From NCBI GenBank assembly GCA_051657705.1, contig JBOFLE010000037.1, forward strand, positions 22,033 through 86,032: a stretch of DNA of 64,000 bases, written 5' to 3'. Numbering within the stretch: position 1 is the stretch's first letter; each line of letters opens with the position of its first letter. The DNA comes from Nocardioides sp. GTDB lineage: Bacteria > Actinomycetota > Actinomycetes > Propionibacteriales > Nocardioidaceae. Below the pieces are notes generated by a model. That model was given only the letters and a program-made list of their open reading frames with translations. It made no database searches and had not been told where the DNA came from. Positions 3,503 through 15,219 of the stretch are shown here, one piece after another. Position numbers and translations under genes: made by a program.

Positions 3503-3545
3503 CCCTTTCTCGTTCGCGAAGCGAGTCGACCGCGCGAGAAGGGCA

Positions 3546-3605
3546 GGTCTTCGATCGAGGCCCGCGGCAACATCTGATCCGCTCCGAAGGCCACTACCGA
3601 GGACC
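3546..3605 (-). promoter_or_regulatory. pnp 5' leader stem-loop (Actino-pnp-like motif, probable RNase III site)
   Basis: Imperfect inverted repeat GGTCTTCGATCGAGGCC...GGCCACTACCGAGGACC in the rpsO-pnp spacer. It resembles the known actinobacterial pnp leader hairpin (recognised from memory). Confidence 0.7.
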
Positions 3606-3660
3606 GTGCCGAACGTTTGCGGCCCGCTCCTGGTTTATTGACTTGGCTTGTCCCGCCGGC

Positions 3661-10014: not shown

Positions 10015-10402
10015 CGCCGGCATACGAGGCGTTGGCCGCCGCCGCTGCCACGGCCTCGTCGGACGCGCGGGCCGCCGCGAGCACCTCGTCCAGATGGCGG
10101 GCGCTCTCAGGCAGGGCGTCTCGTACGAACGTCAACGACGGCACATGCCGCATTCCCAACTGCTTTCCTACCTCCGAACGCAACAAGCCCTTGGCCGACT
10201 CCAGGGCGGCAGCGCTCGTGGCCTCGGCGGCCTCGTCACCGAGGACGGTGTAGAAGACAGTTGCCTGCTGGCCGTCCCCGGTCACTCGGACCTCGGTGAT
10301 CGTGACGAAGCCGAGTCGCGGGTCCTTGACCCGTCGTTCCAGCATCTCCGCCACGATCACCTGGATCCGGTCGGCGATCTTGCGCACTCGTGGACTGGTC
10401 AT
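9959..10402 (-). CDS. rbfA: Ribosome-binding factor A
   Basis: [20 protein letters not shown]...[19 protein letters not shown]; ATGA overlap with the infB stop. Confidence 0.96.
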
Positions 10403-13233
10403 GCCTGCCGTGGGATCTCCTTCAGCTCGAACGCCTCGACCACGTCACCCTCCTTGATATCGGAGTAGTTGCGCAGCACCAGACCACATTCGAAGCCCTC
10501 GCGGACCTCGCTGGCGTCGTCCTTCTCACGCTTGAGCGAGGCGAGCTCGAGATTATCGGCAACCACGGCGCCGTCTCGAACCAAGCGCACCTTGGCGTTG
10601 CGGCGGAGGGCGCCGGAGGTGACCATGCAGCCGGCGATATTGCCGACCTTGGAGGAACGGAAGATCGCGCGGATCTCCGCTTGGCCCAGAGTGGCCTCCT
10701 CGAACTCCGGCTTGAGCATGCCCTTCAGCGCCGACTCGATCTCCTCGATCGCCTGGTAGATCACCGAGTAGTAGCGAATCTCGACGCCCTCCTTCTCGGC
10801 CAGCTCGGTCGCCTTGCCCTGGGGCCTGACGTTGAAGCCGATGATGATCGCGTCCGAGGCCGCGGCCAACATGACGTTGGTCTCGGTGATCGCGCCGACA
10901 CCGCGGTCGATCACCCGCAGGGATACCTCGTCGCCGACATCGATCTTGGCCAACGAGTCCTCCAGCGCTTCGACCGAGCCGGACACATCGCCCTTGAGGA
11001 TCAGATTGAGTTCCTGGCTCTCGCCCTGCTCCATCGATGCCATGAAATCCTCGAGCGTGCGCCGCACGCGACGCTGCGCCTGCATGGCCGCGCGCTCGCG
11101 GGCCTCTCGCTTCTCCGCGATCTGGCGCGCCGTCCGATCGTCGTCGACCACCAGGAAATTCTGACCGGCGCCCGGAACCGCGGTCAGGCCCAGCACCATG
11201 GCCGGGCGCGACGGGTCGGCCTCGGTGATGTTCCCGCCGTGCTCGTCGAGCATCGCCCGGACCCGGCCGTGCGCCGGCCCCGCCACGATCGTGTCGCCGA
11301 CCTTCAGCGTCCCGCGCTGGACCAACACGGTGGCCACCGGTCCGCGACCGCGGTCCAGATGCGCCTCGACGACCAGGCCCTGGGCGTCCTGGCGGGGGTT
11401 CGCCCGAAGATCCAGCGAAGCGTCCGCGGTGAGCACGATGGCTTCGAGAAGCTTGTCCAGGTTGAGCTCGGACTTGGCGGAGACGTCGACGAACATCGAG
11501 TCGCCGCCGTACTCCTCCGGAATGAGACCGTAGTCGGTGAGCTGGCCGCGCACCTTGGTCGGATCGGCATCCGGCTTGTCGATCTTGTTGACCGCGACGA
11601 CGATGGGGACCTCCGCCGCCTTGGCATGGTTGAGCGCCTCGATCGTCTGCGGCATCACGCCGTCGTCGGCGGCAACCACCAACACCGCGATGTCGGTCGC
11701 CTTCGCGCCACGAGCACGCATCGCCGTGAATGCCTCATGGCCCGGCGTGTCGATGAAGGTGATCTTGCGATCCGCGCCGTCGACATCGGTGTGCACCTGG
11801 TAGGCGCCGATGTGCTGAGTGATCCCACCGGCTTCGCGGTCGACGACATCGGCGTTGCGCAATGCGTCGAGCAGCTTGGTCTTGCCGTGATCGACGTGCC
11901 CCATCACCGTCACCACCGGCGGTCGCACCTCGAGGTCGTCCTCGACTCCGTCATCGGACCCGAACTCCAGGTCGAAAGACTCCAGCAGTTCGCGGTCTTC
12001 GTCCTCCGGGGAGACCACCTGGACCACGTAGTTGAGTTCGTCGCCCAGCAATTCGAGGGTCTCGTCGCCGACCGACTGAGTGGCGGTCACCATCTCGCCG
12101 AGATGGAACAACATCTGTACGAGCGACGCCGGATCCACGCCGATCTTGTCCGCGAAGTCGGTCAAGGACGCCCCGCGAGCGAGGCGAATCGTCTCGCCGC
12201 TGCCCTTGCGGACTCGCATCCCGCCGATCGTGGGAGCCTCCATGTTGTCGAACTCTTGACGACGCTGGCGCTTGGACTTGCGGCCACGCCTGGACGGTCC
12301 GCCCGGACGCCCGAACGCTCCCTGGGTCGACCCCCGGCCTCCCGGACGTCCCCCCCCAGGACGACCGCCGCCGGGCGGCGGCCCGAATCCGCCGGGGGCG
12401 CCACCGCGATTGGGCGCACCTCCGGCGCCGGACCGACCGGGGGCACCGCCGCGCGCGGGCGTGCCCGGACGTCCGGGCGCGCCGGGTCGCCCCGGCGCTC
12501 CGGGACGACCGGAGCCGAATGCCGCGGGAGACTTGGGCATCATCGCGGGGTTGGGGCGCGGCATCCCCTCACGGTTGGCGGCGGGCCGAGCATCGAGGTC
12601 TTCGTCGCGGTCCACCCGTGGCGCCGGGCGCCGGCCCATTCCCTGACTCGGCGCGAACGGATTGTTCCCGGGCCGCGGAGCGCCGGGCCGAGGAGTCGGC
12701 TTCGGCCCCGAACTCGATGTCGGGGTCGGGGTCGGTCCGGGGCTCACCGTCGGATCGCCGCCCGCCGGCGGCGGCTCGGGCTGCTTGGCGCGGGCGGCCG
12801 GAGCGAGGTCACCGCGATCGTCGGCCTCGCCCGGTCGAGCGGGTTCCGCGACAGCGGGCTTGGGCGCGCCCGGTACGACACGCGGTCCGGGCTTCGGTGA
12901 GGCCGGCCGGTCCGCGACCGGCACGTTCTCCGTGGGCTCCTGGAGCGTCGGCTTCTGCGGAGCCACCGGTTGAGGCCCGGATTCGTGAGGCACCGGCCGA
13001 TCCTGCGCTGCCTTCTCCACCGGCTTGCTCGGCACCGCCGGGGCGGGAGCGGCCGCATCGGCGGCGGCCTTGAGCTTCTCGCCGTATTCCTTCTTGAAGC
13101 GCATCTCGACGGGCAGTTCGACGGTCGAGGATGGCGACTTGACGAACTCGCCCATCTCTTTGAGCTTCTCGAGAACGAACTTGCTCTCGACTCCGTACTC
13201 TTTCGCGAGTTCGTGGACTCGGGTTTTGGCCAC
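10399..13233 (-). CDS. infB: Translation initiation factor IF-2
   Basis: [12 protein letters not shown]-terminus, Pro/Gly/Arg-rich linker, [16 protein letters not shown] and NKID GTPase motifs. Confidence 0.98.
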
Positions 13234-13272
13234 GGGTTCCTCGGGCTCCTTCTGGCCCGGGTCCCAGGCGAA

Positions 13273-13375
13273 CTAGGAGCGGACCGGTAGTGGTGAAGCG
13301 GTTGTCGACAGACTCATCGGTTAGTACTCATCGAGTGCTCATGAGCTGCTGCTCCAGTTTCTTTCGGTGCTGCAT
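13273..13375 (-). other. Chain of three overlapped mini-ORFs: MQHRKKLEQQLMSTR* (13375-13328), MSTNR* (13331-13314), MSLSTTASPLPVRS* (13317-13273)
   Basis: Read directly: TGATG overlap with the ylxR stop, then two ATGA overlaps. Translation is not demonstrated. Confidence 0.55.
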
Positions 13376-13689
13376 CAGGTCGGGTTGGGCGAACTGCCGA
13401 GATACCTCTCGACCTCGGCGCTCGCCGGGCTTACCTGCGCGCGCAGTGCGCGCGGGAGTGCCCGTCGCCGAGTGGCCAGCCGATAACAGCCGACACTCAG
13501 ATGAAGATAAGCGCCGCGGCCGTCCGCGATCCGAGTCGGATCCGGGACGGCGACCAGGTCTTGGCCAATGCCCATTCCAACCACGATTCGCAACAGCTCG
13601 CTCTTGGGGGCCCGCTCCCGGCAACCGACGCAGGTCCTGACCTGTGACAACGGTGTTGGATCGGGTATCGACTGACGTTCGCGGACCAC
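13375..13689 (-). CDS. ylxR: YlxR/RnpM family protein (DUF448)
   Basis: VRTCVGCRERAPKSELLRIV...GRGAYLH...RRRALPRALR; between nusA and infB. Start GTG 13689 is inferred from a TAGAGT -10 candidate. Confidence 0.85.
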   Translation of the reverse strand: MVRERQSIPDPTPLSQVRTCVGCRERAPKSELLRIVVGMGIGQDLVAVPDPTRIADGRGAYLHLSVGCYRLATRRRALPRALRAQVSPASAEVERYLGSSPNPT

Positions 13690-13750
13690 CAGCGAAAACT
13701 CTAGCGCCTCGTCGACGAATACCCGAATACCCACCCTCGGTCGGCGGAGG

Positions 13751-14722
13751 TCAGGATCCTTCCTCGTCGGACTTGATGTCGATCCGCCAGCCGGTCAGCC
13801 GAGCGGCCAGTCGTGCGTTCTGGCCCTCTTTCCCGATCGCGAGTGAGAGCTGGTAGTCAGGCACCACGACCTGTGCCGACTTGGTCTCCGGAGCCACGAT
13901 CCGCACCGAACTCACCCGAGCCGGCGAGAGCGCTTGCGCCACGAATTCCGCGGGGTCCGCCGACCAGTCGACGATATCGATCTTCTCGCCGTGCAGTTCG
14001 GCCATCACGTTGCGGACCCGTTGTCCCATCGGCCCGATGCAGGAGCCTTTCGCATTGACCCCCGACACCGTGCTGTGCACCGCGATCTTGGTCCGATGAC
14101 CGGCCTCACGGGCGATGGCCGCGATCTCCACCGTGCCGTCGGCGACCTCGGGCACCTCCAAGGCGAACAACGTCCGGACCAGGTTGGGATGCGTGCGCGA
14201 GAGCGTCACCTGGGGTCCGCGCATCCCCTTACGCACCGAGATGACCAGGCATTTGATCCGATCGCCGTGCCGGTAGACCTCCCCGGGAACCCGCTCACCG
14301 AGAGGTAGCAGTGCCTCGATCTTTCCCAGGTCGATCAACACGTCGTCGGGGTTGCGACCCTGCTGGATGACGCCGGAGACGATGTCGCCCTCCTTGCCGG
14401 AGAACTCCCCGAACCGAACCTCGTCCTCGGCGTCGCGCAGGCGCTGCAGCATGATCTGCTTGGCCGTGGTGGCGGCGATCCGGCCGAAACCTTCCGGAGT
14501 GTCGTCGTACTCACCGATCCGATTGCCTTCGTCGTCGATCTCGGCGGCCAGCACCGAGACATGGCCGGTCTTACGGTCCAGCTCGACCCGAGCCCGCTCC
14601 CGCGCTCCCGGAGTCTTGTGGTAGGCCGTCAGCAAGGCCTGCTCGATGGCGTCGACCAAGACGTCGAAGGAGATCTCCTTCTCCCTCTCCAGCATTCGCA
14701 GGATGCTCAGGTCGATGTCCAT
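13751..14722 (-). CDS. nusA: Transcription termination/antitermination factor NusA
   Basis: [12 protein letters not shown]; [12 protein letters not shown]; [24 protein letters not shown]. Confidence 0.98.
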
Positions 14723-15219
14723 CAGGCGCTACCTTCCGCAGTGAGCGCGGCCCTCGGGTCCGGCCGATTGAACTCCACCTGGACCAATGCCCGACGGATC
14801 TGGTCATAGCCGACCGTACGGGACTGCCCCGAGTCGTCGATCGTGGCCGCCCGCTCATCGGCCTTCAAGATCCGCCCGGTCAATCGGTCGGAGGTCACTG
14901 TCGTGACCTCGACCAACCGGCCGACATTGCGCCGCCAATGTCTCGGCGCGCTCAGCGGCCGGTCCACTCCGCGCGAAGTGACCTCCAACGTGTACGGACG
15001 CTCCCCCAGCAGATCTGCGTCGTCGAGCGTCGCCGAGATGACCGCGGTGGCGTCGGCGATGTCGTCCATGCTCGGGCCGGCATCGGAGTCGACCGCGATC
15101 CGAAGCACTCGGCGCGTGCCCGCCGTGGCGATTTCGACCGCCTCGAGGTCGAGGCCGAGATTTGTCAAGCGACCCTCGACCACGGAGGCGATCAGATCAG
15201 GATTAGGTGCCGGACTCAT
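14722..15219 (-). CDS. rimP: Ribosome maturation factor RimP
   Basis: [14 protein letters not shown]...[10 protein letters not shown]; first gene of the nusA-infB operon; AAGGAG RBS and TAGTAT -10 candidate at 15259-15264. Confidence 0.93.

Follow-up and report, generated by a model that had tools for sequence, protein, structure and literature searches.

A conserved chain of overlapping mini-ORFs upstream of infB in actinobacteria, a candidate termination-reinitiation relay

Introduction

Some genes of the translation apparatus are controlled through their own reading. The infC gene, which encodes IF3, has an AUU start codon, prfB, which encodes RF2, contains a UGA-dependent +1 frameshift, and both are autoregulated. 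In the GCN4/ATF4 translation and stress circuit, upstream open reading frames (uORFs) of short length are handled by successive reinitiation that depends on the factor delivering the initiator tRNA, with 40S scanning between spaced uORFs and timing set by distance. IF2 is essential, and its synthesis is not known to be under translational control of the kind seen for infC or prfB; nor, to our knowledge, has autoregulation of IF2 of the kind considered here been described. In this study, we analysed a chain of short, stop/start-overlapped open reading frames (ORFs) located between ylxR and infB, the gene for IF2, in a stretch of 64,000 nt from Nocardioides sp. (GenBank assembly GCA_051657705.1, contig JBOFLE010000037.1, positions 22,033 to 86,032 of the forward strand; hereafter the window), and compared it with the corresponding leaders of other actinobacteria.

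Several described systems resemble parts of this arrangement. The bypassing of T4 gene 60 involves a take-off hairpin and the retention of peptidyl-tRNA. Translational coupling by termination-reinitiation (TeRe) at NUGA and URRUG overlaps was reportedly characterised by Huber et al. in 2019. Termination-reinitiation at an AUGA overlap was shown experimentally in mycobacteria for the uPPE2-PPE2 pair (Kipkorir et al. 2024, PMC11260477), and D'Halluin et al. note overlaps between uORFs, and NUGA overlaps by the hundreds, in M. tuberculosis (bioRxiv 10.1101/2022.06.01.494293). According to a review, reinitiation in E. coli rises with the overexpression of IF2 and falls with that of IF3 (Yoo & RajBhandary 2008, cited in PMC12548453), and the same review covers coupling through RNA unfolding, as in the MS2 coat/lysis/replicase genes and f1 gene VII/IX. 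In the ribosome shunt of plant pararetroviruses, as summarised in PMC5902531, a short ORF ends a few nucleotides before a stable stem and the ribosome lands just after it.

Results

Distribution of the mini-ORF chain

An IF2-based scan with one genome per GTDB species yielded 80 loci, of which 68 had both ylxR and the infB start; with the window, 69 genome loci were compared. All 69 ylxR-infB spacers carried at least three stop/start-overlapped ORFs: three in 43 loci, four in 17, five in seven and six in two. Chains of at least three ORFs that use ATG only were present in 64 of the 69 spacers, compared with 0.46% of their dinucleotide shuffles and none of 7251 background windows of equal length from the same loci. 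The chain was found in Nocardioidaceae, Kribbella, Propionibacteriaceae, Aeromicrobium, Streptomyces and Nanopelagicales as well as in metagenome-assembled genomes (MAGs) of Bifidobacteriaceae and Actinomycetales, and targeted look-ups revealed it in all four Mycobacteriales leaders inspected, i.e., those of M. intracellulare, a Mycolicibacterium, a Rhodococcus and a Corynebacteriales MAG. These four and 44 metagenomic leaders from a scan seeded with a Nanopelagicales IF2 made up 48 further non-redundant leaders with a GC content of 47-76%; at least three chained ORFs were present in 47 of them, and the lone exception has a 2-nt gap at one junction. The pooled count is therefore 116 of 117 actinobacterial loci, and the chain was also seen in one additional Streptomyces-like locus (L168).

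The chain was absent from two outgroup loci of low GC content (44%; L166 and L167), despite a ylxR-infB spacer of the same length, and from E. coli, where just 24 nt separate nusA and infB. The outgroup loci (L166:2780-2930 and L167:2828-2976) encode a 593-aa IF2 and a long NusA, and their 150-nt spacer holds a conserved block of its own (…ttgctcgctca…caccgaaggggaataa…tggaggtt…ATG), perhaps an infB leader element of another kind.

Reading-frame geometry and peptide variability

Among the 116 non-redundant loci, 246 distances of up to 30 nt between successive ATGA words were counted; 228 of them are 2 mod 3, with 14 at 0 mod 3 and four at 1 mod 3, and eight spacings occurred (8, 11, 14, 17, 20, 23, 26 and 29 nt). 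The links comprised 262 ATGA, 21 GTGA, three TTGA and 11 TAATG or TGATG, and CTGA was never found; these 286 NTGA and 11 one-nucleotide overlaps are of the type known from TeRe coupling, and such overlaps are present both in the window and in the pooled loci. The first base of a link was never changed so as to destroy the start codon, since ATG gives way only to GTG or TTG, and the replacement of ATGA by GTGA took place independently in Propionibacteriaceae and in Mycobacteriales. Moreover, the chain is kept despite insertions, one of 15 nt in L006 and another in Kribbella (L056), where it is bridged by a new ORF through TGATG. L019-22 carry TAATGA, and extra links are found in Kribbella, L043, L075 and L117. 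When 66 sequences were aligned, the leader showed invariant columns at three places only: the second ATGA, which is the ATGA of uORF2 in the window, the third link's TGA and the GTG of infB.

The encoded peptides vary. Among 115 loci, we counted 32 distinct peptides for mini-ORF1, 58 for mini-ORF2 and 85 for mini-ORF3. Internal ORFs have 4-5 codons in 195 of 255 cases, and the last ORF mostly has 5-7 codons. The codon CGA before the stop and the word CGATGAG recur in 181 of 297 links, and a G follows the UGA in 202 of 297. The long form of uORF1 is confined to the window and a few relatives, and the MSTR-type core was found class-wide. The comparison of the sequences supports the view that the chained overlaps are under selection and tied to the reading frame, and the conservation of overlaps between variable peptides is a strong argument against a protein-binding or structural RNA repeat.

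These results agree well with a first-pass annotation of the window, made from the letters only, in which three chained uORFs were proposed upstream of infB and regarded as non-random. Each of the elements that it listed was found in its place on the minus strand, the chain is the sole ATG-only chain of at least three overlapped short ORFs when both strands of the 64-kb window are counted, and the contrast between the 64 spacers and the empty background points the same way. Its expectation that an alignment would show overlaps retained while peptides vary is borne out by the mod-3 spacing and the peptide counts, and the similar words that it mentioned for other actinobacteria do precede infB in the spacers of relatives.

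The chain begins on the ylxR stop in about 30% of the loci; in most, it is unlinked to ylxR and has a Shine-Dalgarno (SD) sequence of its own. In Mycobacteriales, the first link is GTGA (L081:2447-2488, L083:1871-1912 and L085:2889-2936). In Mycobacterium and Mycolicibacterium, the ylxR frame runs on through mini-ORF1 and the annotated YlxR therefore ends in MSTP.

Ribosome-binding signals and the hairpin before the infB SD

The starts of mini-ORF1 pair with the anti-SD at a mean energy of -5.9 kcal/mol, which is -4 or stronger in 87% of the loci. For mini-ORF2 and mini-ORF3, the means are -2.5 and -2.2, compared with -4.0 kcal/mol for random positions in the same loci, and the infB SD averages -9.2 kcal/mol over 115 loci, all of them at -6 or stronger. 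SD-less downstream starts, as known from TeRe coupling, are thus found at mini-ORF2 and mini-ORF3, not at infB. Because mini-ORF1 has an SD, de novo initiation is possible there; mini-ORF2 and mini-ORF3 have none, and reinitiation from the preceding stop is therefore the only evident route to their translation. The GAG of each AUGAG was considered as an SD for the next start and rejected, since the starts of mini-ORF2 and mini-ORF3 pair with the anti-SD more weakly than the background. The infB start codon is GTG in 114 of 116 loci and ATG in the remaining two.

A hairpin with the conserved foot GGUCCG/CGGRCC lies between the last stop and the infB SD, with the SD itself outside. In nearly all loci it starts 0-2 nt past the last stop, and it ends 0-7 nt ahead of the SD; in the window and a Nocardioides subgroup, it contains the stop of the last mini-ORF. 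Its minimum free energy (MFE) has a mean z-score of -2.85 relative to shuffles. As RNAalifold predicted no pairs on the gappy alignment A1, covariation was counted on a hand-set 9-bp foot in A1. Seven of the nine pairs change on both sides; the cells with changes on both sides number 56, compared with 30.1 +/- 4.8 in shuffles, none of 500 of which reaches 56, and the covariation score is 0.245, compared with 0.146 in shuffles and 0.111 or less in every slid control. The hairpin is followed by no T-run, and the spacer holds no terminator-like site. The folding energy of the whole spacer is unremarkable (z=0.13), and RNAalifold on the gappy A1 found no consensus helix over the chain region.

In a soil metagenome clade (L064, L066, L068, L078 and L112-L164), two tandem hairpins stand between the last stop and the infB SD, and the stop-to-start distance is 70-89 nt.

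Predicted pairing of the infB SD in the window and in its relatives

The first-pass annotation had further suggested that GCTCCT at the end of uORF3 pairs with AGGAGC of an infB SD candidate, with an inner CTGG/CCAG stem, and that ribosomes on the uORFs melt this hairpin to free the SD. For the window, the outer pairing is predicted at P=0.94 within a fold of positions 13300-13222 with an MFE of -27.4 kcal/mol, in which the conserved hairpin foot is outcompeted (P=0.01). The inner stem is absent from the predicted ensemble (P=0.0), where GCCUGG/CCCGGG takes its place. The usual stop before CGGUCC is missing in the window and uORF3, which at 14 codons is unusually long and runs across the hairpin's 5' arm and GCUCCU, the anti-SD, therefore reads through the anti-SD strand; the ORF3 of relatives mostly has 5-7 codons and ends 0-2 nt ahead of the hairpin. 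With a ribosome modelled on the uORF3 stop, the unpaired probability of the window SD rises from 0.08 to 0.72. The SD homologous to that of the relatives sits 12 nt from the infB GTG because of an insertion of about 9 nt in the window.

Neither the pairing nor the melting extends to the relatives as a rule. Of the 116 loci, 25 (21.6%) have a CTCC word in the stretch from the last stop to the SD, compared with 20.8% in shuffles. When a ribosome was modelled on the last stop of the 116 loci, SD accessibility rose by more than 0.3 in nine, fell by more than 0.3 in five and was unchanged in 102, and the mean unpaired probability of the SD was 0.57 when free and 0.58 with the ribosome. A hairpin that sequesters the SD is thus predicted in the window and not across the 116 loci, and the predicted sign of the effect, where there is any, differs between lineages. 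On these models, the anti-SD structure is plausible in this genome but does not represent the principle that is conserved.

In six related loci (L017, L019, L021, L022, L025 and L032), the hairpin loop CUCCUUCUGG perfectly complements the SD region CCAGAAGGAG, and the SD is located 11-13 nt from the GTG. For four of them (L017, L019, L022 and L025), a ribosome modelled on the last stop lowers SD accessibility, e.g., from 0.48 to 0.004, which is the opposite of the window.

Published and public data

In the supplementary tables of D'Halluin et al. (bioRxiv 10.1101/2022.06.01.494293, Suppl. Tables 5 and 6), the M. tuberculosis infB leader carries a ribosome profiling (Ribo-seq) peak at 3147936-3148017 (-63 to -144) with a coverage of 34,366 at a threshold of 250. 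A coverage above 30,000 is reached in only three of the approximately 95 rows examined of that table, and the tables list no mapped uORF peptide for infB. In M. intracellulare, the chain spans -90 to -49, with the AUG of the first mini-ORF 90 nt upstream of infB; by analogy with this spacing, the peak plausibly covers the first links. The same source puts a 5' end 89 nt ahead of where infB starts, at 3147962, and a Rho-dependent conditional terminator at 3147713, 160 nt inside infB; such terminators flank the leader, and non-overlapping ORFs of M. tuberculosis are reported there to be more prone to Rho termination. Shell et al. place a further transcription start site within Rv2840c, at -278. 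Given the 5' end at -89 and the M. intracellulare AUG at -90, mini-ORF1 might be leaderless on one transcript, or the end might be a processing site.

One 2,357-nt RNA-seq contig from Streptomyces covers ylxR, the spacer and infB; at best, this is evidence of co-transcription. A search of Rfam 15 gave nothing in the window spacer even at E<=10, and no gathering-score match either in that spacer or in those of 12 diverse loci. In the literature searched, we found no description of a mini-ORF chain before infB. AUGA reinitiation, uORFs and hairpin-adjacent coupling are already known; a conserved chain of at least three mini-ORFs before the IF2 gene was not found in Rfam or in that literature.

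Features and setting of the locus

The operon in the window runs on the minus strand in the order rimP, nusA, ylxR, a 141-nt spacer and infB, followed by rbfA and truB (Table 1); the window has a GC content of 68%. Its IF2 is closest to Nocardioides/Marmoricola, and these features, together with an Actino-pnp RNA, indicate a Nocardioidaceae-like actinobacterium. The true start of ylxR is probably further downstream than listed, since the ORF of 119 aa with a GTG start exceeds its homologues of the closest set (77-111 aa; 77-127 aa over all homologues) and the profile covers only part of it. A scan for sigma-70 promoters and intrinsic terminators, which covers actinobacterial promoters poorly, detected no internal promoter or terminator in the ylxR-infB spacer. 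Two other junctions of the operon overlap as well, rimP/nusA as TGATG (14724-14720, minus strand) and infB/rbfA as ATGA (10402-10399, minus strand). A stem with a T-rich tail that resembles a terminator lies inside ylxR (13529-13514, minus strand); as 0.5 such sites are expected by chance, it is probably meaningless. The Actino-pnp RNA (Rfam RF01688, 53.2 bits), a known pnp leader, was detected at 3543-3608 (minus strand), and the same family is also present downstream in loci L071 and L075.

Table 1. Features of the rimP-infB region of the window (window positions; candidate and predicted elements are marked as such)
Feature	Position	Strand	Remarks
rimP	14722-15219	-	operon member
nusA	13751-14722	-	operon member
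ylxR (YlxR/RnpM family)	13375..13734	-	stop TGA 13377-13375; Pfam PF04296 and NCBIfam RnpM match residues 32-104
uORF1, long form MQHRKKLEQQLMSTR*	13328..13375	-	ATG 13375-13373 overlaps the ylxR stop as TGATG; stop TGA 13330-13328
GGAG, SD of mini-ORF1	13352..13355	-	9 nt upstream of ATG 13342; block ctGGAGcagcagctcATGA conserved in alignment A1
uORF1, conserved core MSTR*	13342-13328	-	4 codons; fourth ATGA at 13342, an in-frame internal start of uORF1; conserved mini-ORF1 by homology
CGATGAGT, two copies	13333-13326; 13319-13312	-	
uORF2 MSTNR*	13314..13331	-	ATGA 13331-13328 overlaps the uORF1 stop; stop 13316-13314; without SD
uORF3 MSLSTTASPLPVRS*	13273..13317	-	ATGA 13317-13314 overlaps the uORF2 stop; stop TAG 13275-13273; without SD
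Alternative fold, predicted, window-specific	13230..13290	-	13290-13275, the 3' part of uORF3, paired with 13250-13230, which holds the GUG and both SD candidates; includes GCUCCU:AGGAGC
Hairpin homologue	13254..13285	-	foot GGUCCG 13285-13280 pairs with CGGGCC 13259-13254
GCTCCT	13280-13275	-	
CTGG	13267-13264	-	
CCAG	13255-13252	-	
AAGGAG, homologue of the conserved infB SD	13246..13251	-	alignment A1
AGGAGC	13250-13245	-	
GAGGA, second, proximal SD candidate	13238..13242	-	4 nt from the GTG; spacing typical of relatives
infB (IF2, 944 aa)	10399..13233	-	GTG start 13233-13231; TIGR00487, 765 bits

Discussion

From the architecture, conservation, reading frame, SD pattern and hairpin covariation described above, we infer that the infB leader is translated as a termination-reinitiation relay that regulates infB, a reading towards which we lean without great confidence. 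A ribosome would enter through the SD of mini-ORF1, or from ylxR where the stops overlap, terminate on the UGA within an AUGA word, start again from the AUG of that word so as to translate mini-ORF2, and repeat this step for mini-ORF3. The last mini-ORF would bring it to the 5' foot of the conserved hairpin, the 3' foot of which abuts the strong SD of the GUG-initiated infB. Since the last stop is located at the hairpin foot, a ribosome that completes the relay would unwind the hairpin and be released beside the infB ribosome-binding site. The arriving ribosomes would be the product of at least two reinitiation steps, which IF2 promotes and IF3 opposes in E. coli, so that infB would depend on the reinitiation capacity of the cell. 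The relay may act on infB initiation directly or through a cover of ribosomes that shields early infB from Rho. The wider suggestion of the first-pass annotation, that IF2 synthesis may report on reinitiation, UGA termination or recycling, is plausible. In the window, uORF3 also crosses the anti-SD strand, so that completing the relay may also unmask the SD and the start codon.

Several points weigh against this reading. As infB owns a strong SD, it need not depend on the relay, and because SD unmasking is not general, how relay completion would act on infB lacks an explanation in most lineages. Should IF2 promote reinitiation and the completed relay activate infB, the loop would be a positive feedback, which is unusual for homeostasis. 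The M. tuberculosis Ribo-seq peak also covers the 3' end of ylxR and is not resolved to single mini-ORFs, and no public sequencing run holds this organism, as the best runs contain only 5-6% of the words. Additionally, many of the loci are related, and their counts therefore overstate the number of independent events.

A more specific proposal, to which we would assign a tentative place and which we think somewhat doubtful, is that the leader is a dedicated sensor that sets IF2 synthesis from the initiation capacity of the cell, in what would be the bacterial equivalent of GCN4/ATF4 logic. A steep response to IF2, IF3 and fMet-tRNA would follow from serial reinitiation without an SD or from drop-off caused by IF1 and IF2 on ORFs of 4-5 codons, and the hairpin would pass the post-termination ribosome over its base and on to the infB SD, much like a shunt.

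The overlaps could also serve a constitutive coupling or insulation without any sensing, in which the mini-ORFs hold ribosomes on the 90-230-nt spacer, a fixed fraction of those coming from ylxR or from the mini-ORF1 SD is handed on, the leader and early infB are shielded from Rho and RNases and the IF2:YlxR ratio is fixed. The chains that start on the ylxR stop (about 30%), the fusion of the ylxR frame to ORF1 in Mycobacteriales and the overlaps at other operon junctions fit such a role, as do the Rho-dependent conditional terminators that flank the M. tuberculosis leader and the reported Rho proneness of non-overlapping ORFs in that species. A short spacer or a single overlap would suffice for it, however, and neither the three or more links, the 4-5-codon ORFs nor the stop-at-hairpin geometry is explained; moreover, most chains are unlinked to ylxR and have their own SD. 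We therefore consider purely constitutive coupling rather unlikely. The sign of the control could instead be negative. IF1 and IF2 are said to eject peptidyl-tRNAs that bear very short peptides (an observation ascribed to Karimi et al., 1998, J Mol Biol 281:241, cited in PMC10192219), and a high level of IF2 could abort the 4-6-codon mini-ORFs, which would lead to fewer relay completions and less IF2. The prevalence of internal ORFs of 4-5 codons and of last ORFs of 5-7 codons suits this scheme, which supplies the homeostatic sign that simple reinitiation dependence lacks. Yet the ejection activity is known from E. coli in vitro only, and the scheme needs relay completion to activate infB, which is predicted in just nine of 116 loci, making it improbable in our judgement. 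That same modelling speaks against a general unmasking in which the hairpin keeps the infB SD hidden until it is melted by ribosomes on the last uORF: the effect is predicted in the window and in eight other loci, but most loci are unchanged, the five with the opposite effect comprise the L017/L019/L022/L025 clade and L046, anti-SD words are at the level of the shuffles and the conserved hairpin ends before the SD. As a general principle, it has little probability.

Explanations that dispense with translation fare worse. The (C)GAUGAG words might be bound by a protein, for instance NusA, YlxR/RnpM or an RNase, or they might fold into an RNA structure such as a hammerhead-like CUGAUGA or a kink-turn-like GA motif, and the recurrence of CGATGAG, of CGA and of the G after UGA does exceed what start and stop codons need. 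Nevertheless, ATGA alone is invariant, its spacing follows mod 3, its first base changes only to G or T, both of which make start codons, and TGATG or TAATG can replace it; Bifidobacteriaceae, Nanopelagicales and Mycobacteriales keep the chain with other words. With neither an Rfam match, nor a consensus helix, nor any folding signal over the whole spacer, a translation-independent motif is very unlikely. The kink-turn, C/D-box-like and hammerhead-like readings of (C)GAUGA were rejected individually, as there is no conserved partner strand and the spacing follows the reading frame. A chance cluster of ATGA in an AT-richer spacer can practically be dismissed. By a rough Poisson estimate, about 0.03 ATGA triple chains are expected per 64 kb, i.e., a few per genome, but the same position is kept in 116 of 117 loci across orders, with none in the background windows, and this positional conservation refutes the chance reading.

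The termination-reinitiation relay would matter for several reasons. The element is class-wide and includes Mycobacterium, Streptomyces and Corynebacterium-type organisms, and its geometry makes sense only if ribosomes read it. It offers a handle on how the levels of initiation factors are set in bacteria that translate many leaderless or overlapped ORFs, on the efficiency of serial reinitiation in vivo and on the role of a hairpin that sits precisely where a stop codon gives way to an SD. Chains of ORFs too short for annotation are also revealed as a strongly conserved class of elements that both gene callers and Rfam overlook. Were the sensor proposal true, it would give IF2 its first known autoregulation and bacteria their first multi-uORF sensor of reinitiation.

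Compared with known systems, the infB leader shares only some features with each. Like the leader-peptide attenuators (trpL, ermCL and the mycobacterial Cys-rich uORFs), it has short ORFs in a 5' leader beside an RNA structure, but it is without regulatory codon runs or an intrinsic terminator, and its several overlapped ORFs encode variable peptides of 4-7 residues. The stop at the 5' foot of a hairpin, with the next initiation signal at the 3' foot, recalls the ribosome shunt and gene 60 as a geometric resemblance only, since the shunt is eukaryotic and gene 60 retains peptidyl-tRNA. Coupling by RNA unfolding is similar in that an upstream ORF ends in or near a hairpin by the downstream ribosome-binding site, and the window's predicted hairpin extends over the SD and the start; in most lineages, by contrast, the infB SD is not part of the hairpin, and the models have it accessible both with a ribosome and without one. 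As in GCN4/ATF4, several short uORFs, here three to six in a chain, share one leader before a gene of a translation circuit. The infB mini-ORFs overlap, though, and therefore leave no scanning distance of the GCN4 kind.

A mechanistic relative is TeRe coupling, including the mycobacterial uPPE2-PPE2 pair, which likewise has 4-nt AUGA/GUGA and 1-nt overlaps, SD-less downstream starts and a non-coding uORF as a landing pad, a role that is putative before infB; the uPPE2-PPE2 relay and the census of NUGA overlaps come from the same phylum as the infB chain. Unlike these, the infB leader chains at least three tiny ORFs, the last of which ends at a hairpin without overlapping infB, infB has its own strong SD, and the element is conserved class-wide before this one gene. 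With infC and prfB, the infB leader would share the principle that the mRNA of a factor carries, in its leader or at its start, the step that the factor catalyses or proofreads; in the case of infB, to judge from the sequence, this device would be serial reinitiation.

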